From Rhynchopus sp. YZ270_cl-10 (lineage: Eukaryota), in NCBI GenBank assembly GCA_964035575.1, contig OZ037834.1, positions 1,984,001 to 2,048,000 on the forward strand: a DNA stretch of 64,000 bases, read 5' to 3'. Shown here piece after piece: positions 14,052 through 60,420 of this stretch; positions within the stretch are counted from its first letter, which is position 1; every line of letters starts with the position of its first letter. Position numbers and translations under genes: made by a program. Under the pieces are notes generated by a model. The model was not told the DNA's origin, did not search any database, and saw only the letters and a list, made by a program, of their open reading frames with translations.

Positions 14052-14514
14052 CAGGGCGAACAACGATCGTATTTTTGTTTTTTGTTTTTTTTTTTGTTTT
14101 TTGTTTTTTGTTTTTCGGAAAGGGAAGGCTCGTTTTTCCATTTAATGTTACAAAGTAACAATAAAGGGGGGGGAGGGGGTCCGACCGAAATCCGGGGAAA
14201 AAACTTTTTTTTTTTGTAACAATGGCGGGAAAAAGTGGCTTTTTCCAACAACAAGAACTTGTCCATTTCGGCAGATTGACCCCACCACAGTGCGGACGGA
14301 TTCCGGAAATGCAAATGCGGGTGTTTTCGGATGTGCACGTCCACTGCGCCTTGTTGTTACAATAAATGAAAATTCGGAAAAACGGTTTTTCCGTGTAACA
14401 TAGGGGGTGGGGAGGGGGGGGTCACCGGGAAAAATGGTTTATTGTTACTTTGTAACATTAAAAGGAAAAACGAGCCTTCCCAAAACGGAAAAAATAATGA
14501 TCGTTTTTCACACT
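14052..14514. mobile_element. MITE-like element with long inverted repeats
   Basis: gggaaggctcgtttttccatttaatgttacaaagtaacaataaa (~14122-14165) is near-perfectly inverted as tttattgttactttgtaacattaaaaggaaaaacgagccttccc (~14438-14481). Weaker complementarity extends to about 14052 and 14514. Confidence 0.7.
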
Positions 14515-31480: not shown

Positions 31481-31870
31481 TTCCTCCTTTCCTATTCCCC
31501 CCCCTCCTTGACTAAGCTTTTTTGTAGGTTCATCTTACCTTTGTCTTTTAAGGTGACGAAAAGCAGAGGCTTCAGTTATTATAGTTTTTTCCATATTTTG
31601 CCTGCAATCCGCTTGATGAAGCGGCGTTTTTTTTGCACTTTCAACTTCTCTTTTTTGTGTATACCGTGTCTGTGTCCATTAGTCGTGTTCATGCGCATCA
31701 AAATTTACTTCACTTTATTGGCTTGGATGTGAACGGGGTTGCGAAGGTCTCTTCGTCTGGTCCCCCACACAGCCCGTAACTAGTTTTACGCAGCTCCATG
31801 TTTGTGTTCTCTCTTGAAAAAAAAAAAAAGCTTTTTTTTCTTCTTTTTTTTGATCGTGTGCAGATCTCCT

Positions 31871-31977
31871 TACGGTATTCGTACAAATTATGAACTGTAA
31901 TAATGTTCGACCTTTTCAGGATTTTTTCTGGAAGTTCGACCTTTTTTTACGATAATTTTTTTTGTACGAATACAGTA
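31871..31977. mobile_element. MITE with TA ends (Tc1/mariner-like); related copy at ~43086-43192
   Basis: gtattcgtacaaa ... tttgtacgaatac. The internal gttcgacctttt...ctggaagttcgacctttttt is shared with the 43.1-kb copy. Confidence 0.65.
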
Positions 31978-32495: not shown

Positions 32496-32645
32496 CATGG
32501 ATGTCCAAAGTACTTGAAGTATCCTTGATACGTATCTTCAAGTACTTGACTGTCATTTTGAGAGGAAAAAAAAGGGGGGGGGTCAAGTACTTCAAGTACC
32601 ATAAAAAATCCAAAAAAAGTACTTCAAGTACTTTGGACATCCATG
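32496..32645. mobile_element. MITE with CATGG termini and 6-bp TSD
   Basis: TIR catggatgtccaaagtacttgaagta / tacttcaagtactttggacatccatg; tggtat is duplicated at 32490-32495 and 32646-32651. Confidence 0.8.
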
Positions 32646-35147: not shown

Positions 35148-38100
35148 ATGCGGAGCATGACCCTGGCAGCTGTGCTGCTGGCAACCCTGCTTGGTGCTGC
35201 AGTGGGACAGAACGCAGATGTGGCTGCACTTGATGCTGCGATTGCAGAGGCGCATGCGGACGAGCTGTTGACAGGGCGCGAGAGCATGCTGCTGGACGAC
35301 ACCTTCGCCGACACGGACACGGAGAGCGACAACGACGTTGACTCTGACGTGGACACGGAGACAGAGATGGAGATGGAGAGCACAGAGACAGAGAGAGACG
35401 AGGATCTGCTGGTGCTTGGCTGCTCAAGCCACGGGATGCTGGAGGTGTGCGTGGAGGTGCACCCTGCACTGGAGGCAGGGATCCGCTCCTGCCTGGAGAC
35501 GGGTGCGGCGGATGCGACAGAGGAGGAGGTGGCTGTGACGGGCGGGGTGAAGGGGAGGACGCCGTTTGTGCGGTCGGAGGCAGGGTCCGGGGCGCTGTCG
35601 TGCGTGGCGGGTGCTGCGGTGGTGGCGGTGGACGCGGCAGGGGAGGCAAACGTGCACAAGGAGAACCTGCTGCTGGAGGGGACGCTGATGGGGCTGTCGC
35701 TGACTGTTGTCGCAGATGATAATGGTGGGCTTGCAGTGAACTGGCATGGGACGCTGATGAGCGGGGAGATGGCGGTGGGCCGGTCGGAGGCAGTGGACGT
35801 GGGCTTCAGTGTGAACCGCCCCTCGAACACAAGCGAGGTGGTGACGGAGGTCTACTTGGACATCTCGGACCTGGCGGACGGGCTGCTGGACCTGCCTTCG
35901 CGTCTGTCGTTCTCGCAGGAGGGCCTGCCCTTCTTTGAGGGAGGTGCACTCGACGTTGCGGAGTCGTGCCCCTTTGACGCTGTGGTGGTGGCGGGTGCGG
36001 ACCTGGGGGTGGCGGTGCCGGGTGTGGAGGCGGCGCTGGTGCTGACGAAGGCGCAGTTTGACCTGTGTGCGTTTCTGTCTGACGCGGACAAGAAGACGCC
36101 GTTCCTGACTGTGGCGGCCGGGATGTCAGGCCCCATGGAGGTGAACGGGGTGCCGGTTGAGGGGCTGACGGCGGCGCTGTCTGCGGCACAGGATGCGGAC
36201 GTTGCGGGTGCCGTGGCGTGGACTGGGTCTGTTGCCGGGACGGTGCAGGTGTTCGGCGGGTCTGTGGTGTCGGCGGCAGAGGCGCAGTTCACAAGCGAGG
36301 GGATGTCGGCGTTGTCTGTCGCTGTGGACATGGAGACGGGGGGTCTGCACCTGGTAGGGGATGTGCAGTACGTATCGGGCGGATGCAGCAGTGCGAACCG
36401 TGGGGCTGTGTCGCTGTCAATCCCGTCGGTAGGAGGCTTCGCAGGGAACGGGACGCTTGTGCAGAAGGACGGGTGTGTGGGGGTGGGGACAACAGAGCCG
36501 CAGCCGCTGTGGGTGGTGGATGTGGAGCTTGCAGCGGACGCAGGTGCGCTGGAGGTGGCGGGTGTGTCTCTGGTGGGTGCGTCTGCGCACCTTGAGTCGT
36601 GGCCTGCTGCCCCTGCTGCTGTGGCGATGCCGCCGAGGTGGTCGGGCACTGTGTCTGGGACGGTTGCGCTTGGCTCCGGGAGCACAGGGACGGCCGAGGT
36701 CACAGTGGACGGGGTGGTCGGGCTGATCAGCGTTGCTGTGCAGGGTGCTGTGAGCGTCGGCCCTGTGCGTGGTGCGGTGTCCCTTGAGGTGTCTGACGGG
36801 GTGATGCGTGGTAACGGGTCCTTTGTGTTTGGTGCAGATGCAGATGCTGTGCCGCTGGTGCCGACCTTCTCCGCAGCTGTGGTGCACGTGAGCACGTACC
36901 GCCCCGAGAACGCGCACATGCCTGTGTGGGACGTGCGTGGGTCGCTATCGTCGCTGTCGGTGCACGGGTTCATGCTGGACTCTGTGTCTGTGGTGCTGTC
37001 GGCGGCCTTCGTGAACCCCGAGAAGGCGGGGGACGTGCCGGAGCTGGCGTGGAATGGGTCTGTGGCCGGGGCCGGGTCGCTGGAGGGGACGTCTGTGGCG
37101 CTGGCGGCTGCTGTGGAGGAGGGGGGGTTTGGGTCGCTGGTTGGGGCGGTTGTGGTTGAGGGTGAGGGCCTGGTGTTCAACGGGTCGATTGAGATCACTG
37201 CAGACAACGCGCGTGACGAGTTTGCGCTGCTTGCCGGGGAGGGGGAGCTTGTGCTGACGGCGACGTCGCACACGTTCATGGCGTCGCTGCTGTACAACAA
37301 GTCTGCGCGTGCTGCGGGGGATGTGCGGTATGCTGTGACTGGGACGGCAGCGGGGGCACTGCAGCTGGACGGATTGGAGCTGGCTGCGGCGTCGTTTGAG
37401 GCGACTGGTGTGGTGTCTGGGTCTGGGTCTGCGCTGACGTGGAGCGGACACCTTGCAGCAACGGGACACCTGTTTGGGGGGTCGTCGAGCGTGCAGGTGG
37501 TGTTTGCGGAGGGGGAGCTGCAGGCAGCGGAGGTGCACACAATGTTCATGACGCCGAACGGGATGCTGCAGGCAGCAGTGGACTTTGTGTATGTGAACAG
37601 CTGCACAGAGGCGTCGCGTGGGCACGGGTCTGCAAAGGTGCGCCTGCCGGGGACGGCAGACCTGACAGTTGTGACGGACGTGGCGTACCACCCGTGCAGC
37701 GGGGCGATGGAGCTGACCGGGACGTACGACGGTCGCTGGGACGGGCCCGGCGCACAGCTGGAGGCGGTGTCTGTGTGGCTGCACACGGGTGGGCACGGCG
37801 GGGCGGCGATGCTGAGCACGCGGACGTGGGTGGGGACGATGAACGCAACGACGGCGGCGGGGCTGTCGGTGTCTGTGGAGTTCAACAGCAGCAACCCTGG
37901 GGCTGTGGTGTCGACGCTGGAGTACGAGGACAGCCACGTGCGTGTGACGGCGACGGTGGACGGGACGGACTGCACTGGAGAGGGGCTGCTGATTGTGAAG
38001 GACCTGCCGCACAACATCCCTGCGATGGAGCTGGGCGTGTCGCTGACAAAGGCCTGCGGGGCGGATGCAGACCAGTCGTGGCGTGTGGAAGGATCGCTGG

Positions 38101-40580
38101 CGGACGTGCGGATCCCGTTCTACGGGAAGACGCTGATGATCTCGTCGGCGACTGTGGAGGTGACGTCGTCTGCAAGCGGGGCGAAGACGGTGTCGGTGCA
38201 GGGTGCGTTCCTCAAGGACTTTGAGCTGGACCTGTCGTTCCCACTGCCGCTGCGTGCGGAGGACGTGGGCCTGCGCGGGGCTGTGCGTGCCGGTGCGGCC
38301 ATGACGCCGGACGGGTTTGCGACTGCGTGGCAGGGGTCCGGGTCGGCGTCGCCGCTTGCAGACTCACTCGGGGCTGCGGCACCGGGGATGGTGAAGGGGC
38401 TGAAGGGTCTGGCACTGTCGTCGGCGGAGGTGGTGGTGGACTTTGGGGGCACGGCATCGCTGACGGCGACCGGGACGGCGTTTGGGCTGGACTTTGCGGT
38501 GGCAGTGTCTGTGGTGAAGACAGGGACGGTGTGGAACTACGCAATGGCGTTCACGGCGGACGAGCCTGGGAGCGTGTCTCTGTCTGGGTCTGAGAGCGAG
38601 GACCTGCCTGTGTCTGTGCGGCAGATGATGAAGTCCCTGTCGCCGTCGTGGGTGCGGTTCTCGCTGGCGAAGGCGGCGCTGGTGGTGCAGGGAGTGTCGC
38701 TGCGCCGTGGGCTGTCGCTTGCGGCCTTCCTGGGTGAGGACAACGGGCCGCTGAAGGCGATGGTGGCTGCGTGCCCGTCTGGGCTGGAGGAGCAGGTGGC
38801 GGCTGCAGGTGGCGGCGGTGCGGGTGTGACGGTTGTAGCGGACATTGTGTCGGAGGCGGAGATGACGGTGTTTGTGATGCTGGCCGGGCAGGTGGCGGTG
38901 GGGGACAGGGCCGTGCTGCGCGAGGTGGCGCTGGCGTTTGTGGTGAAGACCGGGGTGCCTGAGATGGGGTTCAAGGTGGTGCTGGACTTCACTGTCGGGG
39001 GCGGGGCGGATGCGCAGACCTTCAGTGCAGGCGGGTTCATCGGGCTGTCTGCGGCAGGGTCGCTGTCGGTGGCGCTGTCAGTGGAATCGGACACGCCGTG
39101 GGTGAGGCCGTTCGGGGTGGCGGGGGTGAAGGTGCTGTTCCCGCTCGGAGTGAAGATGACCATCACACCTGCCCTGCTGCCGTCGCAGTTTGCGCTGATT
39201 GGGGGCCTGCAGATCGGGGGTGCGTCTGGGACGGTTGCGGTCGGAGTGGACCTGCAGGACTTCTCGAAGTGTGCGCTGACAGCAGAGGTGGAGAAGTTCA
39301 ACCTGAAGGGGATCGTTACGGACGTTGTGCAGTGTAATGACTGCCTCGGGCGTGTGGCGAGTGTGCTGAGCGACGTGTCTGTCGAGCATTTTGCGGTTTC
39401 GTTCAACCCGGACCCAGTGAAGGCCGTGGCCATCACGATTGCGGACGTGTCTGTGACGGTCCCTGCAGGGGTGTCGATCGAGGTGGAGGACCTGCGCCTG
39501 TGGGGTGTGGTGCACGTGGTGTCTGCGCACTTTGCTGCGTCGGAGGGGGCGCTTGAGATTGCGATGCTTGCGGAGCCGGTGGAGTGGGGCCCGGTCTCGA
39601 TCACCAGTGTGGACGGGAAGTCGGGGCCGACGTTTGAGGTGGCGCTGACGTCGAAGCAGCAGGAGGTGCGCATTGACGGGCGGGCAGTGGTGCTGGGGCA
39701 GAGTGTGGCGCTGCTGCTGGAGCTGTCGGACGCACGCAAGTACGGGCACCTGGCGCTGTCGCTCGGGTCTGGGCTGTCTGTTGACGTGGAGCTGGAGGCT
39801 GTGGGCACACCCGGGAAGCGCGGGTTCTCGAACACGCTGACGGGGACGGTGAAGTCCGACATCGTGCGGCAGGCGGCGGAGCGTGCGACGAGCTTCCTGC
39901 TGGAGCTTGGGACGAAGGCGACGTCTGCCCTGCGGTCTGCGGGGGGCAAGGTGTCGTCTGCGCAGCGCAAGGTGCGGTCTGCCACGAAGAAGCTGAAGAA
40001 GGTGCAGTACAAGGCTCTGAAGAAGATCAGCTCGGCGAAGAGCACTGTCAACAAGTGGAAGAAGAGCCTCGACAAGAAGAAGAAGTCGTGCAAATCGAAG
40101 GAGAAGACCTGCAAGAGGAAGTGGTGGAAGTGCGGGGCTGTGCCTAAATGCTGGATCGGGTACGGGACGGTCAAGGTTGCGTACTACGCTGCAAAGAAGG
40201 TGCTGAGCGTGGCCGAGCGTGCAGTCAAGGCTGGGATCAGCGTGGCGAAGAAGGCTGTGAAGGCTGCAGACAAGGTGCTGGGTGCGGCAAAGGCTGTCCT
40301 GCGGGCTGCGTCTGCTGTCGTGAAGGCGTTCAAGAGCATTGCACGCGCTGTGGGTGGCGCACTCAAGGACGCCCTCCGCATCCACTCCCTTGTCTTCTCA
40401 AGCGATCTCTCCAACTCGGACACGGCTGTGTCGGTGAAGGCAGACATGACGGTTGTGGGCCACCGCTTCAACTTTGCCTTCAAGACCAACGTCAACTACG
40501 AGAAGTTTGTGTCGAACATTTACAACGAGTTCAGACACCACATGAGGCAGAGGTTTGGGAAGCTCATCAAGGCACTGTGA
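35148..40580 (+). CDS. Large secreted protein (1810 aa): signal peptide, acidic pro-like segment, ~1450-aa beta-rich body, Lys-rich helical hairpin with a Cys-containing tip
   Basis: Uninterrupted GC-rich ORF starting MRSMTLAAVLLATLLGAAVG. Alternating hydrophobic beta pattern throughout. C-terminal KKKKSCKSKEKTCKRKWWKCGAVPKCWIG is flanked by A/K-rich amphipathic helices. Confidence 0.88.
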   Translation: MRSMTLAAVLLATLLGAAVGQNADVAALDAAIAEAHADELLTGRESMLLDDTFADTDTESDNDVDSDVDTETEMEMESTETERDEDLLVLGCSSHGMLEVCVEVHPALEAGIRSCLETGAADATEEEVAVTGGVKGRTPFVRSEAGSGALSCVAGAAVVAVDAAGEANVHKENLLLEGTLMGLSLTVVADDNGGLAVNWHGTLMSGEMAVGRSEAVDVGFSVNRPSNTSEVVTEVYLDISDLADGLLDLPSRLSFSQEGLPFFEGGALDVAESCPFDAVVVAGADLGVAVPGVEAALVLTKAQFDLCAFLSDADKKTPFLTVAAGMSGPMEVNGVPVEGLTAALSAAQDADVAGAVAWTGSVAGTVQVFGGSVVSAAEAQFTSEGMSALSVAVDMETGGLHLVGDVQYVSGGCSSANRGAVSLSIPSVGGFAGNGTLVQKDGCVGVGTTEPQPLWVVDVELAADAGALEVAGVSLVGASAHLESWPAAPAAVAMPPRWSGTVSGTVALGSGSTGTAEVTVDGVVGLISVAVQGAVSVGPVRGAVSLEVSDGVMRGNGSFVFGADADAVPLVPTFSAAVVHVSTYRPENAHMPVWDVRGSLSSLSVHGFMLDSVSVVLSAAFVNPEKAGDVPELAWNGSVAGAGSLEGTSVALAAAVEEGGFGSLVGAVVVEGEGLVFNGSIEITADNARDEFALLAGEGELVLTATSHTFMASLLYNKSARAAGDVRYAVTGTAAGALQLDGLELAAASFEATGVVSGSGSALTWSGHLAATGHLFGGSSSVQVVFAEGELQAAEVHTMFMTPNGMLQAAVDFVYVNSCTEASRGHGSAKVRLPGTADLTVVTDVAYHPCSGAMELTGTYDGRWDGPGAQLEAVSVWLHTGGHGGAAMLSTRTWVGTMNATTAAGLSVSVEFNSSNPGAVVSTLEYEDSHVRVTATVDGTDCTGEGLLIVKDLPHNIPAMELGVSLTKACGADADQSWRVEGSLADVRIPFYGKTLMISSATVEVTSSASGAKTVSVQGAFLKDFELDLSFPLPLRAEDVGLRGAVRAGAAMTPDGFATAWQGSGSASPLADSLGAAAPGMVKGLKGLALSSAEVVVDFGGTASLTATGTAFGLDFAVAVSVVKTGTVWNYAMAFTADEPGSVSLSGSESEDLPVSVRQMMKSLSPSWVRFSLAKAALVVQGVSLRRGLSLAAFLGEDNGPLKAMVAACPSGLEEQVAAAGGGGAGVTVVADIVSEAEMTVFVMLAGQVAVGDRAVLREVALAFVVKTGVPEMGFKVVLDFTVGGGADAQTFSAGGFIGLSAAGSLSVALSVESDTPWVRPFGVAGVKVLFPLGVKMTITPALLPSQFALIGGLQIGGASGTVAVGVDLQDFSKCALTAEVEKFNLKGIVTDVVQCNDCLGRVASVLSDVSVEHFAVSFNPDPVKAVAITIADVSVTVPAGVSIEVEDLRLWGVVHVVSAHFAASEGALEIAMLAEPVEWGPVSITSVDGKSGPTFEVALTSKQQEVRIDGRAVVLGQSVALLLELSDARKYGHLALSLGSGLSVDVELEAVGTPGKRGFSNTLTGTVKSDIVRQAAERATSFLLELGTKATSALRSAGGKVSSAQRKVRSATKKLKKVQYKALKKISSAKSTVNKWKKSLDKKKKSCKSKEKTCKRKWWKCGAVPKCWIGYGTVKVAYYAAKKVLSVAERAVKAGISVAKKAVKAADKVLGAAKAVLRAASAVVKAFKSIARAVGGALKDALRIHSLVFSSDLSNSDTAVSVKADMTVVGHRFNFAFKTNVNYEKFVSNIYNEFRHHMRQRFGKLIKAL

Positions 40581-41799
40581 GTGTGCGAATGTGAGGATGT
40601 TTTGTTCTAAATGATTGTGTATTGCATATTGTTACAACTGACGGATGTGTGGGTTGTGTTTTTAAAGGGCCTTCAAAGGGCTCATCTGTTACGCTATACT
40701 TTTGCGGGGCTGTATTCTCCCCAAATGTGCTGTTCTGTATTTTTATTCATTTTTTCTTGATGAGTGTGTCTCCATCTATTGATGTGTGGTGCATTCATCC
40801 ATCGAACTTTTTACCTTCATTCTTGGAAATGTGTACGACGTAGCGAAAGAGCGGCACATGCATCTTCCAAGTTTTGATTATATTCCTTCGTTTATCAGTG
40901 TGATCTAGAACAAAAAGGGGCAGTCTCACTGCACCCAGGGGATGTGCCTTTAACTTAACCGTGCCTCCAAGGAATCGAAACCAACCGTTCCGCCTCTACC
41001 TCCATGCTTGATGCTGGGTAGGGCAGGCGGGGCAGGAGGTTTCTATTCTATTTTTCTATTCTTTTAAGGTGATAAGCAAGAGGCTTAGGGTTCATCTTAT
41101 AAAATTTTTCTTTTTGGTATGGCAAGACCGTGTGTGGTTTTACGAGATGGCTGTATGGTGTCTTTTGTGCGTGCTCTGGTGGCCGTTCATGTACACACCG
41201 TTTACACCTTTTTTGTTCCCTTTTGTTCTAAATTCAGATTGATTCTTGCTCTTTTGTTCTTCTTCTTGTCAGTATTCATTGCTCCCTTCGGAGGACTGCG
41301 TGAGGCGAGCCACACCAGAAAGACCAACCACTGTGGTTCTCCCAGCCCTTCTCGAAGCAGATTCCCCGAATACCTACTCATGCCCCCCCCCTTTCAGATC
41401 CCGAAGACCTTTGCCTCCTGATGGCTACGTTTTCCGAAGCGCTCTCGCCCCCCCTCGGGAATGAGTGTTGCGGTGAAAAATACGAAGCTTACCACAGTAC
41501 TGAGGTCTTTGCCCTGATTTGTGTGTGGGGGGGGTCCCAGTGTTCCTAATTTTGCGTTTAAAACGTTTAAAACGTTTTAAACGTTTTAAATTATTTAAAA
41601 CGCGTTTTAAACGTTTTAAACGTTTTAAACTCGAATAAAAAACGGGTGACAGTTCTGCACAAAAAAACGTAAAAAATGTGGGGGGAATTTTTTGAATTTT
41701 TTTTTCTGTATCAAAAATCATAGTTTTGGTGCATCTGGGGTCAATTTAGCCTGGTTTTTCTTGGTTTCTCCTGCTAACTTGTTTCCTGTACGGTACCCT

Positions 41800-42042
41800 A
41801 ATGAGTGCGCCAAAACCTGGCTGATCAAGCGCTTGGTGCCAGCATTTGATGTGTCAAAAATTCCCAGCGGGTTCCAGATGGGTAACAGGGTACTTAAGGC
41901 TGAGTATGACAGGGTCATGGTTCCTGTGAGAGCAGCCCTAGCAAAGAGCCTGCACATCTCGGTATACGTTGATGGCTGGAAGGCGCACAACGACGAGAAG
42001 GTGTTCACCCTTGTCGCGAGGGTGCGGATGCCCGCCCTGTAA
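41800..42042 (+). pseudogene. hAT (DUF659-like) transposase fragment
   Basis: RLVPAFDVSKIPSGFQMGNRVLKAEYDRV..LAKSLHISVYVDGWK resembles the PSR..L...Y..V...S...DGW region leading to the first catalytic Asp. It ends in a stop codon. Confidence 0.65.
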
Positions 42043-42199
42043 GCACAAAAGTTTTGGAGGAGGACTTGCACAATGCGGAGGAGATCTGCACGCACCTGCA
42101 TGAGAAAAAGATAAGTTGAGTGGGCTAGTGTGTGATGGGGACACCATGGGACACCACTGTGTCTTCTCTGTTCACAACAGCAGCGGCGGACGACCTGGA

Positions 42200-42704
42200 G
42201 AAGTTCATGCGGGTGGAGGACTCCCCTGGTAGAGCTGCTGCGACATCGACCAAGCTACCTGCAGGCGACAGCTGGCTTGCCGGAGCGATAGAGACTGTGG
42301 AGGAGACGGGAGCCTATCGCCACAGCATACGCGCACCCTTACTGGACCACGACCCCGTGTCACCGTGGGAGTGGGATCGTACGCTGAAAGACGTGCTGAT
42401 CACACCAGAAATACCGGGTGTCAGCAAGAGTGACTCTGCAAGGAGCAAAGAGAACCGGCAAAGGACGGAACTGGCTCTTGCGGCTCTGCCACCCCACACG
42501 GTACGCGTCTACACAGACGGATCCTTGCACACGGTAAACAGAACACCACGCGCTTCACTGACCACCAGACCAGCGCACCCCCAAGGAGGAGTGGGGGCCA
42601 TCTTCTATCACAACGACGGCTCCACTACACCAAAGGGGGCACATCAAGCATCCAGTGGCGCAGGCACACTCTGCTCGGCCTATCAGGCAGAGCTGGTGGC
42701 ACCT
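42200..42704 (+). pseudogene. Truncated RNase H fragment of an Ingi/I-group-like non-LTR retrotransposon
   Basis: VRVYTDGSL...GGVGAIF...SGAGTLCSAYQAELVA corresponds to the RNase HI N-terminal motifs (YTDGS, AEL.A). Truncated at a hairpin. Confidence 0.75.
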
Positions 42705-42812
42705 TGTAATTAGACACCATGCGGTGTCTAATTACACCGTGCCTGCTGCCACTGAAAAGTTCAGCAAAGAGGAAAATACCACATTTTTTCGCAAAGACAT
42801 TTTTTTTTGCCT

Positions 42813-42846
<34 letters not shown>

Positions 42847-43212
42847 CCTGAAAAGCCAAAATTCACCACCGTTTTTTATTCGAGTTTAAAACGTTTAAAA
42901 CAGTTTAAAACGTTTAGAATTTAAAACGTTTAAAACGTTTAGTTTAAAACTAGCGTTAGGAACACTGGGGGGTCCCCTTCCCCCTCACCCCTGCTCTCTT
43001 CTCCCCTATTTCCAACTCTTTCCCCCTTTTCCCGTGGGAGGTGGGAGGGCGACGGCGGCAATGCTGTTCCTTCCCATCTTCCCATTACCGCATTCGTACA
43101 AATTATCGACCGTACTAAATGTTCGACCTTTTCAAGATTTTTTCTGGAAGTTCGACCTTTTTTTACGGGCAAACATTTTTACGAACACAATATTTTAATC
43201 CTCCCCCCCCCT

Positions 43213-44862
43213 TAGGGGCGTCAGCCCTTAAGGAAATCCTTAAGAAACCTTGTCACAAAACCATATTTTTGAGTTTTAGGTTAAGAAATCCACTAAAATA
43301 GTCGTATTTGGCCCCAAAACCACCTCCCGATCACAGAAATATGTCAATAAAACCACAGACGACCTTAACAGAGGCTTTGTTACCAAAAAAAATCGGTGTT
43401 TTTATGAAAAAACACCCCAAAACCACGTCACGCTCGCGTCACGCTATTCACCGATTTTCGAACCCTTTTTGAAATATGGCTCTAAGTTCCACCAAGTCCC
43501 TCTAAACACCCCAAAACCGCCTGGGTACCCCTCGGGATAGGTTCTGGGGTGAAAATATGTGGTTTTGGGGGCTTTTCTGGTCCCCAGAGGCGTCTCAGAG
43601 CTATTTGACACACCCAAAAGCTCCATTTTTTATCAAAAAATGCTTGCTTTTTTACCTTGTCATGAGCATTAACACCCTCAATGAGACCCCCAGAACGTCT
43701 CTAAAGTCCAAAAATCACCCCGGAATTGATTCCCGGACCTCATCATAGGTGGAGTACCATGTTTCTGGGGTCAAAAATGCGTTGTGGTCCATTACTGTTC
43801 CCCCTGACAATGAGCGATAGAGTAGCGATAGAATAGAAATATGACCACCTCCAGGAAACCAAAATTTTGACAAATAACACAAAAAAATGCGTACTAAGGT
43901 GTATAAACACCCTACACCGCCTGGGTACCCCTCAGGATAGGTTCTGGGGTGAAAATATGTGGCTTTGGGGGCTTTTCCGGCCCCCAAAGACGTCTCAGAG
44001 ATATTTTTCACACCCAAAAACTGCAGTTTTATCCTACAGGGGTATAAGGGGGAGCTAAACTGCAGTTTTTGGGTGTGAAAAATATCTCTGAGACGTCTTT
44101 GGGGGCCGGAAAAGCCCCCAAAGCCACATATTTTCACCCCAGAACCTATCCTGAGGGGTACCCAGGCGGTGTAGGGTGTTTATACACCTTAGTACGCATT
44201 TTTTTGTGTTATTTGTCAAAATTTTGGTTTCCTGGAGGTGGTCATATTTCTATTCTATCGCTACTCTATCGCTCATTGTCAGGGGGAACAGTAATGGACC
44301 ACAACGCATTTTTGACCCCAGAAACATGGTACTCCACCTATGATGAGGTCCGGGAATCAATTCCGGGGTGATTTTTGGACTTTAGAGACGTTCTGGGGGT
44401 CTCATTGAGGGTGTTAATGCTCATGACAAGGTAAAAAAGCAAGCATTTTTTGATAAAAAATGGAGCTTTTGGGTGTGTCAAATAGCTCTGAGACGCCTCT
44501 GGGGACCAGAAAAGCCCCCAAAACCACATATTTTCACCCCAGAACCTATCCCGAGGGGTACCCAGGCGGTTTTGGGGTGTTTAGAGGGACTTGGTGGAAC
44601 TTAGAGCCATATTTCAAAAAGGGTTCGAAAATCGGTGAATAGCGTGACGCGAGCGTGACGTGGTTTTGGGGTGTTTTTTCATAAAAACACCGATTTTTTT
44701 TGGTAACAAAGCCTCTGTTAAGGTCGTCTGTGGTTTTATTGACATATTTCTGTGATCGGGAGGTGGTTTTGGGGCCAAATACGACTATTTTAGTGGATTT
44801 CTTAACCTAAAACTCAAAAAAATGGTTTTGTGACAGAAAAACCCCCTAGGCTGACGCCCCTA
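43213..44862. mobile_element. Palindromic (foldback) non-autonomous DNA element A
   Basis: 14-bp TIR taggggcgtcagcc. Arms of 779 bp at 43251-44029 and 44057-44835 are near-perfect reverse complements around a 27-nt spacer. An internal ~110-bp direct repeat recurs at 400-nt spacing in each arm. Flanks are tccccccccct. Confidence 0.88.
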
Positions 44863-45181
44863 TCCCCCCCCCTAGGGGGTCCGACTCCTAATAGACTTGT
44901 GTATAAAATTTCGTACAAAAAACCTTTTTTTCACGTTCTGACCATCTCCCGGGCAACTGCAGGTCATAAACACCCCCAGAATGGGTTTCTGGGGCAAGTG
45001 AGGCCGGTTTCTGACCGAAACACCTTCCGAAAATGGAAAAAATGGAAAAAATAGGCTTATTTGTGGCTATGTGCCCAAGGACGGTAAAACGGCCATTATC
45101 ACAAGAAGGGGGGATAGATGGGTGTTGCTTTTTTGTTGTATTGATGTAGCATGAGTGATTGAATACTTTGGGGGGGGGAGG

Positions 45182-47506
45182 CTAGGATGGTTTGGGGACG
45201 TCTCCCTCATCATAGAGGTATCGTGCAAGCTCAGGTATGGTGTCACTTTTAGTGGTATAAACGATGCCACGTTCCTCACACTGTTCCTTAATATCAAGGT
45301 AACATGTGTCTTTGAGTTTGGCACAAATTTTGGATACCGAGGCTGTGCTATGAACCCGCCCCTGCACCTTAACATTTTTTTCTTTAAAAAAAGTACTGTA
45401 CCGCACTGCGGCATCCCATATCTCAGGGGTCACAGACTGGGTAGAAAATCCCGTACTCTCTAGAGTCCCAATGTTATGCCTGTACATAGCAAGCATTGCA
45501 ATACGGGGGGGGGTGGTATGTAACCCCAGGCGATCAAACAACATTGAAAAGGTACCGTGGTACCCCTCAACGAAGTCATTTGACGCCGGAGTTGCAAGGA
45601 GGTACTCCTCAGGAATGTGACTCAAGTCAGCATCCTTTGCAACAAAACGATCCCATGTCGCACACCCTTCCTCAACAACAGCAGCCATCATCTTGCGGAA
45701 CCTCCGTCGGATCGCCTGTGTCCGTCCTGCCACTTTGAGTGCCTTCGCGACTGCCGGGCGGGTCTTCGTCGTCTCCACCCAGCTGGGGAAGGTGAGTGGG
45801 TCGGTGTCGGAGGTTGCAACGCATTGCAGCGAAACAATCTTCTCGCGAAGACCACCGTAACCTGAACGCGCAGTCTTCACGTTCTTCACTCCACCCTTCT
45901 TTGTCGCGACAAAGACTGCACTCATCCATGAGTGGATAAGGACACACGCGCTCATCTGCAGTAACATCGTTGGGTCCTTCAGCAGCAGGTCGAGCGCCTC
46001 GCTCCCAGGGATCAGCATCTCCCCTCTGCGGACCTGTGCCTCCGCTTCCTCGAACCGCGAGAAGAGGTTGTACGCGTTCGTGGCGGCCCACCCATAGCGG
46101 GTCCCCACCTCGCGAGTCACCTTGAACCCCTTCTTCGCACGACCTCCACCTTCAACGGCTGCACGTGACCGGTTGATAAGGCCAGTGTTCGTTGTGGAGG
46201 CCGTGGCAGAGGCGTCGCTGGCTGTGGCGAAGGTGCGCAAAGCCTTCTCCAGGGGGTCCTCCTTCATCTCCTTCATCGACTTCATCCCCTTGGCCTTGTG
46301 CAAGAAGAAACTTGCAGCCTGCTGCATACCGCCGACGGTGTTGCTCATTTTATGGCTAGAGCAGCCTGTCGACGGTACAGCATCCTTAGCTGAAGCGCCG
46401 ATGCCGGTGGCCGCGTGGTCGACACAGTTGACCCAGTGCGCCACGGGGATGTGCATGTCTTTGCATGCTGTGCGGAACTCGTCGAGTTGTGCCGCCTTCG
46501 TCGCGTCACGCCCGTTCTCCCCGACTGTGACATGGCCGATGACTTGTCGTACGGTGTTGGGGGTCTTCCAATCGGCCACGTTGAGCGCAAAGGCTGACGG
46601 CGTGTACCCCTTCGCCCCCCTCGAGCCGCTCGCCGAGTCCTGCGAGCACGTCGTCCCCCACTTCTTCCCAGCGTTCCGCACCTTCATCGCTTCGCAGAAG
46701 GGAACAAAAGAGAGGGGCCCAGAAACCCAGTCCCATTCTCCGATGGTGCTGACGGCGGGGGGCTCCATCTTCTCACCCGTCCACAGCTCAAGCTGTGATG
46801 CCAAGATCGACCTGGTCGAATCGAGGCCGATGCCGTGGCTGCGCAGTTGGATGCACAGCATCTTGATGGGCAGATGCCATCGGTCACCCTGCGGGGAGGC
46901 GCCATGCGTCTTAGTGGGGATGGTGAGGTTGGTAAGGCGAACAATCTCCTGCTTTAAGGTTTCGATCTCCTGTTGTAGTAGCTCGACTCGGTCGTCTTGT
47001 CGCAATATTTTTTGATGCTGCGCTGCGACCTTCTTTTTGCGCTGCTGGTGGGTGTGGGCAGGTCTACCTGTCACGTGCAATGCTGGCGAGTCCGCGTCGG
47101 GGAAGAGTTCGACACCGCACTGTGATGGAGAACGGTTGGGCTTGTGTCGCTTCTCCGGGCTACGGGGGGTGCTGCCACCAGGCTCACTACGCCGTTTAGC
47201 CCTTTGTGGTGTCGTCTCCTCCTCTTCCTCCTCCTCCTCCTCCTCCTCGTCCTCCTCTTCTCCCGTATAATTGGAGTGGCTGCACGTCAAACACCAAACC
47301 TGCACCCGCTGACCACTAACGGAGGGCCTCCTCTTGCAACACCCTAACTCATTTAGTGCCTTACTGAAGGGGAGATCTGGGGTCGTGTTGCAGTTGTAAC
47401 GGATGCGCAGAGTTTCGAAATTCGTAGCATCTAACCCACACACGTCTCCCTTGCGCAGGGCAACCTTTCGCATAAGCTTCTGTGCCTCTATTCTTGCACC
47501 ATCCAT
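45182..47506 (-). CDS. DDE transposase with CxxH insertion-domain signature (hAT/P/MuDR/Kolobok-related group; superfamily not assigned)
   Basis: Intact 774-aa ORF inside the TIRs. Candidate catalytic motifs are TCSQDSAS (D), NCVDHAAT (D), GCSSHKM (CxxH), EVGTRYG and SNDFVEGYHG (E). It also has a coiled coil, an N-terminal winged-helix-like segment and a C-terminal SAP/HeH-like IKEQCEERGI..TKSDTIPEL. Confidence 0.78.
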   Translation of the reverse strand: MDGARIEAQKLMRKVALRKGDVCGLDATNFETLRIRYNCNTTPDLPFSKALNELGCCKRRPSVSGQRVQVWCLTCSHSNYTGEEEDEEEEEEEEEEETTPQRAKRRSEPGGSTPRSPEKRHKPNRSPSQCGVELFPDADSPALHVTGRPAHTHQQRKKKVAAQHQKILRQDDRVELLQQEIETLKQEIVRLTNLTIPTKTHGASPQGDRWHLPIKMLCIQLRSHGIGLDSTRSILASQLELWTGEKMEPPAVSTIGEWDWVSGPLSFVPFCEAMKVRNAGKKWGTTCSQDSASGSRGAKGYTPSAFALNVADWKTPNTVRQVIGHVTVGENGRDATKAAQLDEFRTACKDMHIPVAHWVNCVDHAATGIGASAKDAVPSTGCSSHKMSNTVGGMQQAASFFLHKAKGMKSMKEMKEDPLEKALRTFATASDASATASTTNTGLINRSRAAVEGGGRAKKGFKVTREVGTRYGWAATNAYNLFSRFEEAEAQVRRGEMLIPGSEALDLLLKDPTMLLQMSACVLIHSWMSAVFVATKKGGVKNVKTARSGYGGLREKIVSLQCVATSDTDPLTFPSWVETTKTRPAVAKALKVAGRTQAIRRRFRKMMAAVVEEGCATWDRFVAKDADLSHIPEEYLLATPASNDFVEGYHGTFSMLFDRLGLHTTPPRIAMLAMYRHNIGTLESTGFSTQSVTPEIWDAAVRYSTFFKEKNVKVQGRVHSTASVSKICAKLKDTCYLDIKEQCEERGIVYTTKSDTIPELARYLYDEGDVPKPS

Positions 47507-47517
47507 TATGATTTTGG

Positions 47518-48257
47518 GTGTTTTTTAAGACGATTTTCTGTCGTGTTTTTGCGGTGTTTGGGTGGGGATGTGGTGGAAATTTGGAACTATCTGGGCTCCC
47601 AGGGTCCTTTTTCGGGGGTTTTTGGCATTTCTTGACCCCTATATGGGTCAAACAGCATGCCGGAGTGCTGCCGGAGCGCTGCCATACCATTGCCATACCA
47701 TTTTTTTTGATGTAAAAACACCAAAAAAACACTTCCAAAAGTGTCAAATATGTCCAAAACAGGTTGGAATGGACTCACAGGCCACTTTTGGGGTATATTT
47801 GTGCCAAAGGAGGTTTTGTGATGTCAAAAAATAGCCGTTTTTTTGCTTTTTTTTTGAAAAATCGCTATCGTCACACAGGCTCCATAATGACCTTTTTGAA
47901 AAAAGTGTGTTTTTTAAGACGATTTTCTGTCGTGTTTTTGCGGTGTTTGGGTGGGGATGTGGTGGAAATTTGGAACTATCTGGGTTCCCAGGGTCCTTTT
48001 TCGGGGGTTTTTGGCCATTTCTTGACCCCTATATGGGTCAAACAGCATGCTGGAATGCTGCCGGAGCGCGGTCAGGGTATTGCCAGGGTATTTTTTTGGA
48101 CATAAAAACACCAAAAAAACACTTCCAAAAGTGTCAAATATGTCCAAAACAGGTTGGAATGGACTCACGGGCCACTTTTGGGGTATATTTGTGCCAAAGG
48201 AGGTTTTGTGATGTCAAAAAATAACCATTTTTTTGGTTTTTTCTTGAAAAAACGCTA
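47518..48257. repeat. Subterminal direct repeat (2 copies, ~390-nt period) upstream of the transposase
   Basis: gtgttttttaagacgattttctgtcgtgtttttgcggtgtttgggtgggg... starts at 47518 and 47907, with high identity over about 340 nt. Confidence 0.9.
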
Positions 48258-49465
48258 TTTTGCCCAAAATGGCCAAAAGCGTCAAAAAGCCGTTTTTTCA
48301 CTATTTTTTCCCATTTTTTTGTATTCTGGGGTGGCTTCTGGGTCGTTTTTCGGCCCACAGGCCCCCTGTGACCCACTCTGAGGGTGTTTTTCACCCGCAG
48401 TTGCCTTGGAAATGACCAGAAGTTTAATAATGAGTTTTTTGTACGGTAATTTTACTCACAGTCGGACCCCCTAATCCCCCCCCCTCCCTCCCCTCCTTCA
48501 CCTCCCCCCACAGTGTGCTGCGCCCGCAAGAGGCGTTTGTACCCTTGAACTTCGATTCCTTTAGGTGAGCAAAGCACAGAGAGAGGCTTGGGCACCATTG
48601 CATCATCAACGTTTATATGTTTGTTCCTCGGACATCTTTTTTTGACAGCCTTTTGGAAGAACGTCCTTTACCAGAGTGAGGTTTTGTGTTGGTGTCGTAC
48701 TTAGGTTCCATTTTTGCAGAGCTTTTTCTTGTAGACTTCTCTGCGCTCTGGTATTTGGAATTTCGTTCTTTTGGTGTTGTCGCGAATCCAACGTACATTT
48801 TTTGTTAAAGATGCTGGATACGAGAAAGATGGCTGCTTTTTTCCCTTATTTGTTTCATTCATTTCCATTCTCGCTTTTGAAAAGAACAATAAAAAAAGAA
48901 CGGATACTTTGTTTATTGTCGTTACAAATGGTGTGGCTGGCGACCCCCAAAATAGCAGAAAATAGCAGAAAATAGCACCGGAGGAGCCTCCTCTGCAGAG
49001 TCAAGAAGAAGACTTTCGTGCCGATGGATTTGTCGACTGTCCATCTTCCGCTTCCGCAGCCGTGTCACCACATTCGAGAGAACAGGGTCGCGCGACAACC
49101 AAGCCACACCAACAAATCTTTTCCTCGGAGGCCGCCTTCGGGATAATGTGATACATTTACCCCCCTCTTTTCCCCCCTTCTCTCCCGAAATCCCATTCAC
49201 AAACACACACACAGCGTATACACACCCCATTGTTTCTCTTTTTCTCTTGCCCCCCTCCATACCCCCAGACCCCCATACCCCCACACCACCTTCCACTCAT
49301 ATTTCAAGTACCTCCCGAACGACCTTTATCACTTCTTCTCAACCTTTTTTCTTTCTGTGTTTTTCCTCTCAACTCTCAACTCTCCACTATGCGTGAATAA
49401 GGGGGGGGGGGGGGGTTTTTTTTTTCTCTCTTTTTTCAGTTTTGGTTGGTGGGCTTATCTTTTTG

Positions 49466-55238: not shown

Positions 55239-55350
55239 CAGGGCGTTCGCCCCGGGGCGAAAAATATTTTTTTTCGTTAAAAAAAATTTTTCCTGAAAAA
55301 ATGACATTTTATTTCGCCCCAGGGCTTCGCCCCACCGGGGCGAAACCCTG
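55239..55350. mobile_element. Small MITE with CAGGG termini
   Basis: cagggcgttcgccccc ... ggggcgaaaccctg with internal ttcgcccc/ggggcgaa repeats. No clear TSD. Confidence 0.55.
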
Positions 55351-56235
55351 TATAAATAAATAAATAAATAAATAAATAAAAAAAGGGGAGAAAAAAAAAT
55401 AAAGAGAGAGAGATTTCTCCCCACCACCCTGTCGACCCCCCGGAGGGGGGGTCGCAGAGGGGTGTCTGTTCCGCAAACCCGCCTGCCGTGAGAGGAAGTT
55501 TCCCCAGCACTCCCGCTCCTCAATCCTGCAGTCTGGTGAAGCCCCTGTTATAGAAGGTGTCACTACTCGTGTCAACTCTACCTTCAACGGCAGAGAGACG
55601 TTTTAGTTTATTGAAAATAATCAAAATAAGGATGAAGTCTCATATGACGGATGCCTCTCTCTTGTACATCTGTTTGATTAAACAACACAAAGAGACCCTC
55701 AGTGAGGGGGGATTGATGAAATTCTCCATCGTTTTGCTGGTTTTAGTCAGGAAAGTGCAGCTGTAATAGCACTTGTGCTGGGGAAGGGATCACGCGCAAA
55801 TCGCAAATTTTTTTTGACCACTCAGTACCAGGGATTCACCCCCCACGAACTAGCTTCTCTCCGGCGGAAAATTTTTTTTGACCTATTTTAAGCACTAGTA
55901 AAAAAGCAAAAATTTCGGGTTTTTTGGCATTTCGCCACGATCAGGAAAAAACGATGGCGATAGCGAACGCCCTGGTTGTGTTTGCAAAAAAAAAAAGTGA
56001 TGACGTTGTGTCAAAAAATGTTATAATGAAGCTCACCCTCGGGGTGTCAAAGCTGTAGAACCTCAGTTGCGTTCTGTATCCAAAAGGAAAATAGAAAAGA
56101 AAAAAAAGTTCTCTCCCATCCTTCCCTAAACCTTTTATTTGAAATGACATTATCCCCCCCGACTCCCCTTCCAAATCCGTCCAGCTGCTGTTGTAGTGGA
56201 CTACCGCGGATAGGGCAGGAGTGGGCTGAGAGGGA

Positions 56236-58554: not shown

Positions 58555-59280
58555 ATGGACATCACCGTACACGCCTTTGATGGTACAGCGTGTACTGTGG
58601 AGGTGAGTCCAGAGGATACGTCTAATGTGCTCCGCTGCAAGATAGCCGTTGCAGTGGGGGTACCGGAGGACAGCTTTCATGTGCACTGTGGAGGTGGTGC
58701 GGTGGAAGACGTACGAGGTTTGAGCGCTGGAGACTCCATCGTGTTGAAGAGAACTAGGCGGTACCGCGCAATCGCAGCGCTCCACGCATTAGGTGAAACC
58801 GAACTGACTGCAGAGAGAATGGCCTCAGTACGGGACCTGAAGGTGGCCTCTCTCTTCCTAGAGGCTGAAGTGACAACGGCGATTCCGGATAATTTTTTGT
58901 GGAACTCTTGCCTAACTACCCTTGACCTTTCTGCTGGGTCTGGGATTACCAAAATTGGGGATAATTTTGCGGCAGAGTGTCCTAATTTAGAGACCGCAGA
59001 TTTCTCTGGGTTGAGCAGGGTCAGGGAGATCGGGGACTCTTTTTTGATGTGCTGTGGTAACTTGCGGGAGGTGGATCTGTCGGGGCTGCGCAATGTAGAA
59101 GAGATCGGAAGCTCCTTTCTTGGCTGCTGCTTCTTCTTGGGGGAGCTGGACCTCTCTGGCCTCTGCAGTGTGGCAAATGTCAACGACGACTTCCTCTGGG
59201 ATATTACCCCCCTAATGATCAACACCTCAGACTACACCCCTGTTGTGTTGGACTTTCTCCGCAAGACTAAACGAATTTGA
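58555..59280 (+). CDS. Ubiquitin-like domain + BspA-type LRR protein (copy 1)
   Basis: MDITVHAFDGTACTVEVSPEDT..LRCKIA is a Ubl pattern, followed by repeats IGD.F...C.NL...DLSGL..V. Confidence 0.82.
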   Translation: MDITVHAFDGTACTVEVSPEDTSNVLRCKIAVAVGVPEDSFHVHCGGGAVEDVRGLSAGDSIVLKRTRRYRAIAALHALGETELTAERMASVRDLKVASLFLEAEVTTAIPDNFLWNSCLTTLDLSAGSGITKIGDNFAAECPNLETADFSGLSRVREIGDSFLMCCGNLREVDLSGLRNVEEIGSSFLGCCFFLGELDLSGLCSVANVNDDFLWDITPLMINTSDYTPVVLDFLRKTKRI

Positions 59281-59493
59281 GTCATCCAAAGAAAACAGCT
59301 CAAAAAATTCGCATATTCAATAGAGGAGGGATGTCTTCTCTTCTCTGGAATTCACATATTTAAGGCGAAAAAAAGAGTTGTATAGATTATAGCGACTACC
59401 TCCTCGGGGTGTCTGCACTAAAAAAAAGTCAATCAAGTTTTTTTCTTCTTATATCCTCCCCTCTCCCCTCTTGTCTTCTCCTCTCCTCCTGGA

Positions 59494-59586
59494 CATAGTG
59501 TGCAGACGAACCAAAAGTTCGTCAATGTTCGTCGACGACCATCGACGAACCAAAACGACGAACTTTTGGTTCGTCTGCACACTATG
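59494..59586. mobile_element. Palindromic MITE (CATAG termini, 6-bp TSD) inserted upstream of Ubl-LRR copy 2
   Basis: 30-bp TIR catagtgtgcagacgaaccaaaagttcgtc; flanks cctgga / cctaga. The paralogous site at 58491 has a single cctaga. Confidence 0.88.
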
Positions 59587-59652
59587 CCTAGACCTATTAG
59601 CGGGACATTCAGAATTCTTCCACAAAGCCGATTTACCTCCAGACAACACCAA

Positions 59653-60420
59653 ATGGACATCACCGTACACGCCTTTGATGGTACAACGTGTACTGTGGAG
59701 GTGAGTCCAGAGGATACGTCTAATGTGCTCCGCTGCAAGATAGCCGTTGCAGTGGGGGTACCGGAGGAGAGCTTTCATATGCACTGTGGAGGTGGTGCGG
59801 TGGAAGACGTACGTGGTTTGAGCGCTGGAGACTCCATCGTGTTGAAGAGAACAAAGCAGTACGACGCAATCGCAGCGCTCCACGAATTAGGTGAAACCGA
59901 ACTGACTGGAGGGAGAATGGTGGCAATACGGGATCTGAAGGTGGCTACTTTATTCCTCGATGCTGAAGTGGCATGGGCGATTCCGGATAAATTTCAGTGG
60001 AAGTCTCGCATAACTACTCTTGACCTCTCTTCAACTGGGTCTGCGATTACCAAAATTGGGGATAATTTTGCGGCAGACTGTGCGAATTTAGAGACCGCAG
60101 ATTTCTCTGGGTTGAGCAACGTTGTGGCGATCGGGGACCGTTTTTTGATGTGCTGTGGTAACTTGCGGGAGGTGAATCTGTCGGGGCTGCGCAACGTAGA
60201 GGAGGTGGGGATCTGCTTTCTTGGCTGCTGCGCTTCATTGGAGGAGCTGGACCTCTCCGGCCTCCGCAGTCTGACAAAGGTCAAAGGACGAGACTTCCTC
60301 TGGGAGACCAGCCCCCGCTTGATCAACACCTCAGACTACACCCCTGTTATGTTGGAATTTCTCCGCTCGACAAATCGAATTTTCCCGGCGGGGAAAATTT
60401 CGTTTGATTATGATCCCTAA
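59653..60420 (+). CDS. Ubiquitin-like domain + BspA-type LRR protein (copy 2, tandem duplicate)
   Basis: Highly similar to copy 1, including upstream and downstream flanks. Confidence 0.82.
   Translation: MDITVHAFDGTTCTVEVSPEDTSNVLRCKIAVAVGVPEESFHMHCGGGAVEDVRGLSAGDSIVLKRTKQYDAIAALHELGETELTGGRMVAIRDLKVATLFLDAEVAWAIPDKFQWKSRITTLDLSSTGSAITKIGDNFAADCANLETADFSGLSNVVAIGDRFLMCCGNLREVNLSGLRNVEEVGICFLGCCASLEELDLSGLRSLTKVKGRDFLWETSPRLINTSDYTPVMLEFLRSTNRIFPAGKISFDYDP

Follow-up and report, generated by a model that had tools for sequence, protein, structure and literature searches.

A window of 64,000 nucleotides from Rhynchopus sp. YZ270_cl-10 (assembly GCA_964035575.1, contig OZ037834.1, positions 1,984,001 to 2,048,000 of the forward strand), the window being the whole stretch analysed and the source of all positions given here, carries two DNA transposons, element A and element B, stacked in one C run. 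A preliminary description, made from the sequence alone, had presented both as a candidate new DNA-transposon system, with ends starting TAGGGG and 11-bp target-site duplications (TSDs). The computational analysis reported here followed up that proposal.

Elements A and B and their junctions

The features of the locus, including terminal inverted repeats (TIRs) and one open reading frame (ORF), are the following:

43202-43212, plus strand: left TSD of A (T-C9-T, 11 bp), from the junction test
43213-44862, no strand: element A, whose 14-bp TIRs adjoin spacers of unequal length (the left one 11 nt longer), from the junction test and run contigs
43251-44835, no strand: inner palindrome of A, two 779-nt arms and a 27-nt loop, from sequence comparison
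44862-44872, plus strand: left duplication of B (A-T-C9), whose first base is the one that ends A and whose other 10 belong to the 11-base right duplication of A
44873-48473, minus strand: element B, predicted to be autonomous, from the junction test
45182-47506, minus strand: transposase ORF P0001, 774 amino acids, intronless
47518-48258, no strand: two subterminal repeats of ~390 nt each, upstream of the ORF
48474-48485, plus strand: right duplication of B (48474-48484), then T 48485, the last base of A's right duplication

Element A (1650 bp) is a non-coding, foldback-like palindrome and is non-autonomous, and element B (3601 bp) holds an intact transposase gene. Both are bounded by perfect TIRs (14/14 bp) starting TAGGGG, TAGGGGCGTCAGCC in A and TAGGGGGTCCGACT in B. 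The duplication of B reads A-T-C9 (11 bp, at 44862-44872 and 48474-48484), and that of A, read after in-silico removal of B and one B duplication, is T-C9-T (11 bp, at 43202-43212 and at 44863-44872 plus 48485). In the junction test, covering 25 boundary shifts per element and duplication lengths of 2-24, 11 bp was the sole length with symmetric TIR ends for A and for B, and the coordinates and TIRs of the preliminary description were recovered base for base. Lengths below 11 demand asymmetric ends cutting into the C run, and one asymmetric parse of B, with start and end both shifted by 1, likewise gives 11. The earlier worry that the 11-bp call rests on a homopolymer is smaller than feared, as these lengths do not float in the C run, because non-C bases pin both duplications. 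That the first T belongs to the terminus is evident from the G-run flanks of four contigs, which abut 44873, and from the end of a distant relative described below (L001).

No counterpart of the A at 48474 exists in the left flank as it originally stood, and this base is identical to the one that ends element A; therefore A inserted first, then B, whose target overlapped A's end by one base, the order that had been proposed. As a chance check, the whole window was scanned for exact TIRs of at least 10 bp with exact TSDs of 6-14 bp, giving nine matches, two of which, A and B only, have an 11-bp TSD; the match of A is partly fortuitous, as B's first T stands in for base 48485. A third B-TIR match in the window, at 14173 (12/13), was considered and rejected (three seen against 1.26 expected, reached in 12 of 100 shuffles). 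A 44-bp inverted repeat (14122-14481) encloses a G8 run with this match next to it, and the match is at chance level alone.

Regarding the internal anatomy, the arms of A (43251-44029 and 44057-44835, 779 nt each) differ by one mismatch at 43265, where the matching base was read in four of four sequencing runs, and they enclose a 27-nt loop at 44030-44056. A periodicity of 400 nt is present within each arm (about 121 nt at 88%). In B, the TIRs are followed by an imperfect subterminal inverted repeat of roughly 90 nt (74%), and a periodicity of 389-390 nt (about 350 nt at 93%) occurs at the ORF-upstream end, so that the ~390-400 nt subterminal periodicity claimed for both elements stands for both arms of A and for one end of B only. 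The spacer after the 14-bp TIR is 11-12 nt longer at one end in both elements, the longer one of B (12 nt) being at the ORF-downstream end, and the ORF is separated from the upstream end of B by 967 nt and from its downstream end by 309 nt. The derivation of A from B by deletion was rejected, as the two have only short motifs in common (local score 54, where 50 mononucleotide shuffles reached at most 41; best BLAST E 7e-4), and A probably has a partner transposase of its own.

The transposase of element B and its relatives

The ORF of B is uninterrupted and its product has a CxxCxH motif at 72-77, followed by an acidic linker and a coiled coil; the motif lies near the N-terminus in 17 of the 22 proteins checked, and twice in P0133. 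The RNase H core is formed by D290, D363 and E647, with CxxH at 382-385 and an insertion of 284 amino acids between the second Asp and the Glu. Conservation was counted over the rows with a residue in a 57-sequence core alignment, from which seven N-terminus-only matches were left out and P0171 was dropped as a false match (Ig repeats); it reaches 28/28 for D290, 26/27 for D363, 30/30 for C382, 25/27 for H385 and 34/35 for E647. Position 471, after R or K, is aromatic in 29 of 31 rows (Y in 20, F in 7 and W in 2), and its equivalence to W319 of Hermes comes from motif order, not from superposition.

Word-based searches returned two relatives, and the full profile search 63 at E<=0.001. Five of the 20 looked up could be named, all of them from diplonemid transcriptomes (one from Flectonema neradi and four from Lacrimia lanifica). 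A metagenome scan confirmed one of 114 candidates, none of 29 candidates in viral contigs and none of 38 in prokaryote genomes were confirmed, and the plasmid search found no relative. Several relatives, namely P0136, P0138 and P0188-P0191, lie on contigs of 0.3-1.7 Mb.

No Pfam transposase family was present among the matches listed for P0001-P0003, for 28 homologues and for 25 of the 77 families of the 57 alignment members. Within this set, PF05699 was absent from P0001-P0003, from the 28 homologues at E<=0.05 and from the 25 of 77 families listed, and the BED finger was not found by Pfam in P0001-P0003 or the 28 homologues. Matches to SAP and Rho_N below the Pfam cut-off occur at the C-terminus of some homologues only, and SAP-like C-terminal helices are possible in P0001. 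Searching the PDB by sequence gave no match at E<0.1.

Structure prediction, a check proposed earlier for the 774-residue protein, was run on the 57-sequence alignment for residues 200-774 (predicted local distance difference test, pLDDT, 93.7; predicted template modelling score, pTM, 0.91), and a 3-sequence AlphaFold model was discarded (pLDDT 41.6). Foldseek placed Hermes first (E 6.6e-6), and VIA-align to Hermes gave Z 17.0 over 334 aligned residues, with a root-mean-square deviation (rmsd) of 4.0 and 12% identity, compared with Z 9.6 for ISCth4 (IS256/MULE), 8.3 for P (rmsd 7.2), 8.1 for Transib and 7.2 for RAG1. The modelled fold aligns up to Hermes residue 609 despite the lack of a PF05699 match. 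By this comparison with solved folds, Hermes, a hAT transposase, is clearly the nearest to the predicted catalytic core. The single strong viral match was a Pandoravirus hAT protein (E 2.7e-8).

Target sites and further copies

Sampled words of the window are present in four sequencing runs at 77-79%, and the best run may be the window's own source; no RNA dataset was among those listed, which counts neither for nor against expression. The ORF is matched with 0 differences by contigs of runs X1, X2 and X4 (a 60-nt repeat being skipped), with a depth in X2 of 96 against 78 for the flanking contig. Depth at the element ends is tens to thousands of times that of the ORF, depth being a sum over contigs and not a copy number, and the deepest-covered part in the run contigs is formed by the repeats upstream of the ORF (47518-48258). 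Left and right ends are joined in A (43251-44838 and 43253-44823, in three runs) and in B (44888-48435); therefore, short non-autonomous derivatives exist. In addition, X2 holds a further family member, as a 963-nt contig with about 87% identity to part of the ORF.

A joint of 43083-48505 (29 other letters; X1, X2 and X4) was considered as an empty site and rejected as a diverged paralogous flank, which in these three runs is without both elements and without the repeat at 43085-43200. The latter, directly left of A, is together with 31870-31951 a very deeply covered short repeat.

Flanking sequences were surveyed in X2 against 44812-44928, giving 66 contigs, 13 of them with loose parts; six of eight loose-end rows were listed. 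The four intact-end flank groups listed (10 contigs) all have C7+ or G7+, in either orientation: A-type right ends continue into AT-G7 (1 contig) or T-C7, then A-C6 (2 contigs), and in front of B-type left ends three contigs show at least C9 and four a G-run consensus (agreement 0.72). The background of C7+/G7+ in the window is 273 of 63,800 11-mers, or 0.43%. The sixth row is internal to the element. Moreover, exactly C11 lies between a B-type end and a CAGTGTT-type element end (two contigs of X1 and one of X4), a spacing that would fit an 11-bp duplication flush against the other element.

The relative L001, which comes from another assembly and whose protein is 40% identical, terminates in CCCCTA; a G run of 16 bases follows and reaches the contig end, on the same ORF side as the G9 of B. 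Its ORF-upstream region (1-118; upstream end missing) consists of tandem 10-11 bp units and not of 390-400 nt units; therefore, the subterminal architecture varies within the family. The poly-C target preference proposed earlier gains support from L001 and from the flanks at other loci, and applies equally to G; judging by these flanking sequences, G/C homopolymer runs are likely picked as targets. At the locus itself, the target run begins a pyrimidine tract ending in CAG (48485-48513), like a splice-acceptor tract; speculatively, if such a tract were a general feature of the targets, insertions would fall beside splice sites.

Interpretation and comparison with known systems

A and B probably represent a hAT-like lineage, likely from diplonemids, characterized by 11-bp TSDs and G/C-homopolymer targeting, in which B has an intact gene and A is non-coding. 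This lineage is apparently undescribed, as no description was found in a literature search that had most subscription papers and Repbase Reports outside its reach, and what is new is the combination of traits, not the machinery. Thus, the distinct lineage of the preliminary description holds, and the phrase 'new DNA-transposon system' was overstated, since the core is closest to Hermes, TAGGG ends are known from hATm, and 11 bp is within the MULE range. The published families are compared below as they appear in the available parts of the papers cited.

Regarding the mode of action, transposition would be cut-and-paste by a Hermes-type DDE/CxxH enzyme, whose RNase H core with a large helical insertion is predicted from the fold. 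By analogy with hAT and Muta1 hairpin biochemistry (PMC5499845, PMC4763223), excision may proceed via hairpins on the flanking DNA, with participation of the CxxH histidine and the aromatic residue 471. The target would be a C7+ or G7+ run in either orientation, and the 11-base stagger, about one helical turn, would place both joining sites on one face of the target. Since the window also holds hAT-type elements with 8-bp TSDs, the 11 bp is not a host-wide repair effect. Each insertion would duplicate the run and leave a fresh target against the element's end, where later elements may stack, and such a duplication would explain the stack of A and B; the tandem clustering proposed earlier is supported by the A-then-B junctions. 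The N-terminal CxxCxH module, rather than a BED finger, may bind the subterminal repeats, and many short non-autonomous derivatives would be moved in trans.

The label hAT-like, instead of hAT member, is used because the elements depart from hAT in TSD length (11 bp in 2/2 insertions, not 8 bp) and in the PF05699 and BED signatures by Pfam. The short TIR consensus of hAT begins C/T-A-G. In common with Hermes (Musca domestica; PDB 4d1q, 6dwz), A and B have short TIRs starting TAG (14 bp, TAGGGG), subterminal repeats and asymmetric left and right ends, and B encodes DDE, with C/DxxH after the second Asp, in a predicted RNase H core that a large helical insertion interrupts. They differ from Hermes in the 11-bp instead of 8-bp TSD, the G/C-run target, the low identity, the missing PF05699/BED match among those listed and the CxxCxH N-terminal module. 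The hAT Trp of the GxR(Y/F) motif is mostly Tyr or Phe here, if the two positions are indeed equivalent.

Dada elements, which insert into tRNA, small nuclear RNA and 5S genes and have CCCC and CCHC fingers (PMC3706591, PMC8869645), are similar in their DDE and C/DxxH enzyme, repeated genomic target and tandem insertions one TSD apart; however, they lack TIRs and have TSDs of 6-7 bp, unlike the TIR-bounded elements described here, with 11-bp TSDs and a homopolymer target. The CryptonV microsatellite families and Pokey are also DNA transposons with a repetitive target, but CryptonV uses a tyrosine recombinase and Pokey is a piggyBac-type element in 28S ribosomal DNA, neither being hAT-like nor described as homopolymer-targeting in the available text of PMC8869645. 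The P element is a weaker fold match, as given above, and no THAP match was present among those listed.

Several observations weigh against the hAT-like lineage with homopolymer targeting. The 11-bp length comes from two insertions (A and B) in one shared C run, no other copy in the run contigs could be read at both ends, and the look-up of empty sites in reads, suggested earlier, gave no exact one among the 15 of 23 joints listed. The flank sample is small, the surveyed stretch contains C9, which favours C-run but not G-run flanks, two listed contigs at the C-run position (depth 7.7 and 16.1) may be error variants, and in a fifth loose-end row (1 contig) A stops 3 bases short and the flank is not a homopolymer. 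In L001 the G run reaches the end of the contig, a place where poly-G can arise as a sequencing artefact. As for the modelled fold, the protein is only 12% identical to Hermes, and the matches included no structure for Kolobok, Dada, KDZ, Academ or hATm, so that 'closest to hAT' means among solved folds. The best language-model neighbours are clusters from Basidiomycota and Chordata (0.92-0.95).

The most pertinent alternative, which we consider unlikely, is a divergent member of a named hAT subgroup, above all hATm, in which TSD length and target bias have drifted. The Hermes-like predicted fold would suit it, hATm elements also start with TAGGG (TAGGGTG), and TSD length varies within hAT, with subgroups of 5, 6 and 7 bp (PMC12730594) besides 8 bp and the 8-9 bp of hATm (PMC6004678), which can thus exceed 8 bp; the named atlas neighbours, mostly hAT-related (DUF659, PF05699, ZBED1; 0.78-0.80), agree with it at the level of a lead. 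However, all five ends read have TAGGGG, continued as TAGGGGC in A, TAGGGGG in B and TAGGGGA in L001, not TAGGGTG, and the TSD is 11 bp, both of which set the elements apart from hATm as described in that source. In addition, PF05699, reported there in hATm-6, is in 0/28 homologues and not among the families listed, and none of the 63 profile matches is nameable as hATm, the five named ones being diplonemid. A MULE or foldback element of the MuDR superfamily would account for a TSD of 11 bp and for A being a long palindrome, given that MULE TSDs range over 8-11 bp (PMC4858842), that B has CxxH in common with MULE/MuDR, Muta1 and ISCth4, that foldback-like non-autonomous forms with subterminal repeats are known in Muta1 (PMC5499845), and that ISCth4 is the second-best fold match. 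Nevertheless, this is extremely improbable: the TIRs measure 14 bp instead of the 100-500 bp of MULEs, the insertion domain is larger (284 amino acids from D2 to E, against 107 in ISCth4, D241-E348, PMC7780238), Hermes stands 7 Z units above ISCth4, and no MULE Pfam family was among the matches listed.

It could also be that there is no sequence-specific targeting, but a regional C-rich or pyrimidine preference, an effect of composition, sampling or slippage, with a true TSD of 8-9 bp. The region is pyrimidine-rich, the flank sample is partly biased besides being small, and a G run is also the site of a nearby hAT-type element with an 8-bp TSD (G5TCC); still, the rarity of C7+/G7+ in the window, the G-run flanks, which have no alignment advantage, and the same flank in the distant relative L001 make this improbable, and slippage would need C9 in all three copies of the run. 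Finally, B could be real and the perfect palindrome of A an artefact of assembly or of long-read foldback, as the 779-nt arms are effectively 100% identical and the loop is spanned by none of the contigs listed from the four runs. This is very unlikely, since A has unlike spacers at its two outer ends, the flank picks up correctly beyond it with the duplication, short derivatives in three runs link A-type left and right ends, and right ends of the A type are also present at other loci.

Beyond the hAT-like lineage itself, a wider proposal is possible, though it is held only tentatively: a separate, superfamily-level CxxH DDE branch across diplonemids, which would be the first cut-and-paste lineage specialised on G/C homopolymers, with an 11-bp stagger of one helical turn, its own CxxCxH DNA-binding module, and a target regenerated at each insertion, leading to nested stacks. 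Under it, the fungal and chordate clusters may be sister groups.

The surroundings contain other mobile elements. In a G run at 41538-42967 lies a hAT-type element that has CAGTGTTCCTAA at its ends and an exact TSD of 8 bp (G5TCC), with a short ORF (41692-42042) bearing a DGW motif, which we take to be a hAT label, and a 193-amino-acid ORF (42132-42713) with no Pfam match; at another locus, an end of its family lies 11 C from a B-type end. A 736-bp element at 55239-55974, whose 12-bp TIRs begin with CAGGG and whose 8-bp TSD is exact, is a canonical hAT-type miniature inverted-repeat transposable element, and a 150-bp element at 32496-32645 combines a perfect TIR of 26 bp, beginning with CATGG, with a duplication of 6 bp in its flanks. 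Among the genes, labelled by inspection, are a 2418-amino-acid internally repeated protein (670-7926), an 1810-amino-acid protein (35148-40580) and a tandem pair of ubiquitin-like and leucine-rich-repeat ORFs (58555-60420). The dihydroxy-acid dehydratase of the window has its best species-named match in Diplonema papillatum (64%). Together with the named diplonemid relatives of the transposase, it makes a diplonemid host other than D. papillatum likely; the remaining 15 of the 20 relatives could belong to other groups.

For DNA transposons, specificity for a target sequence is said to be less known, Pokey, CryptonV and Dada being the named cases (PMC8869645). With the intact intronless ORF and both ends in hand, a hAT-fold enzyme that has a homopolymer as target and a stagger 3 bp over the canonical one makes testable how the hAT transpososome determines TSD length and recognises its target. 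The finding also adds to a poorly catalogued mobilome, as the available text of the D. papillatum genome paper reports ORFs of TATE, MULE and Helitron elements, does not mention 'hAT' anywhere in the main text and leaves rigorous transposable-element identification pending (PMC10161547). As the family has no Pfam transposase match, standard annotation would miss it.

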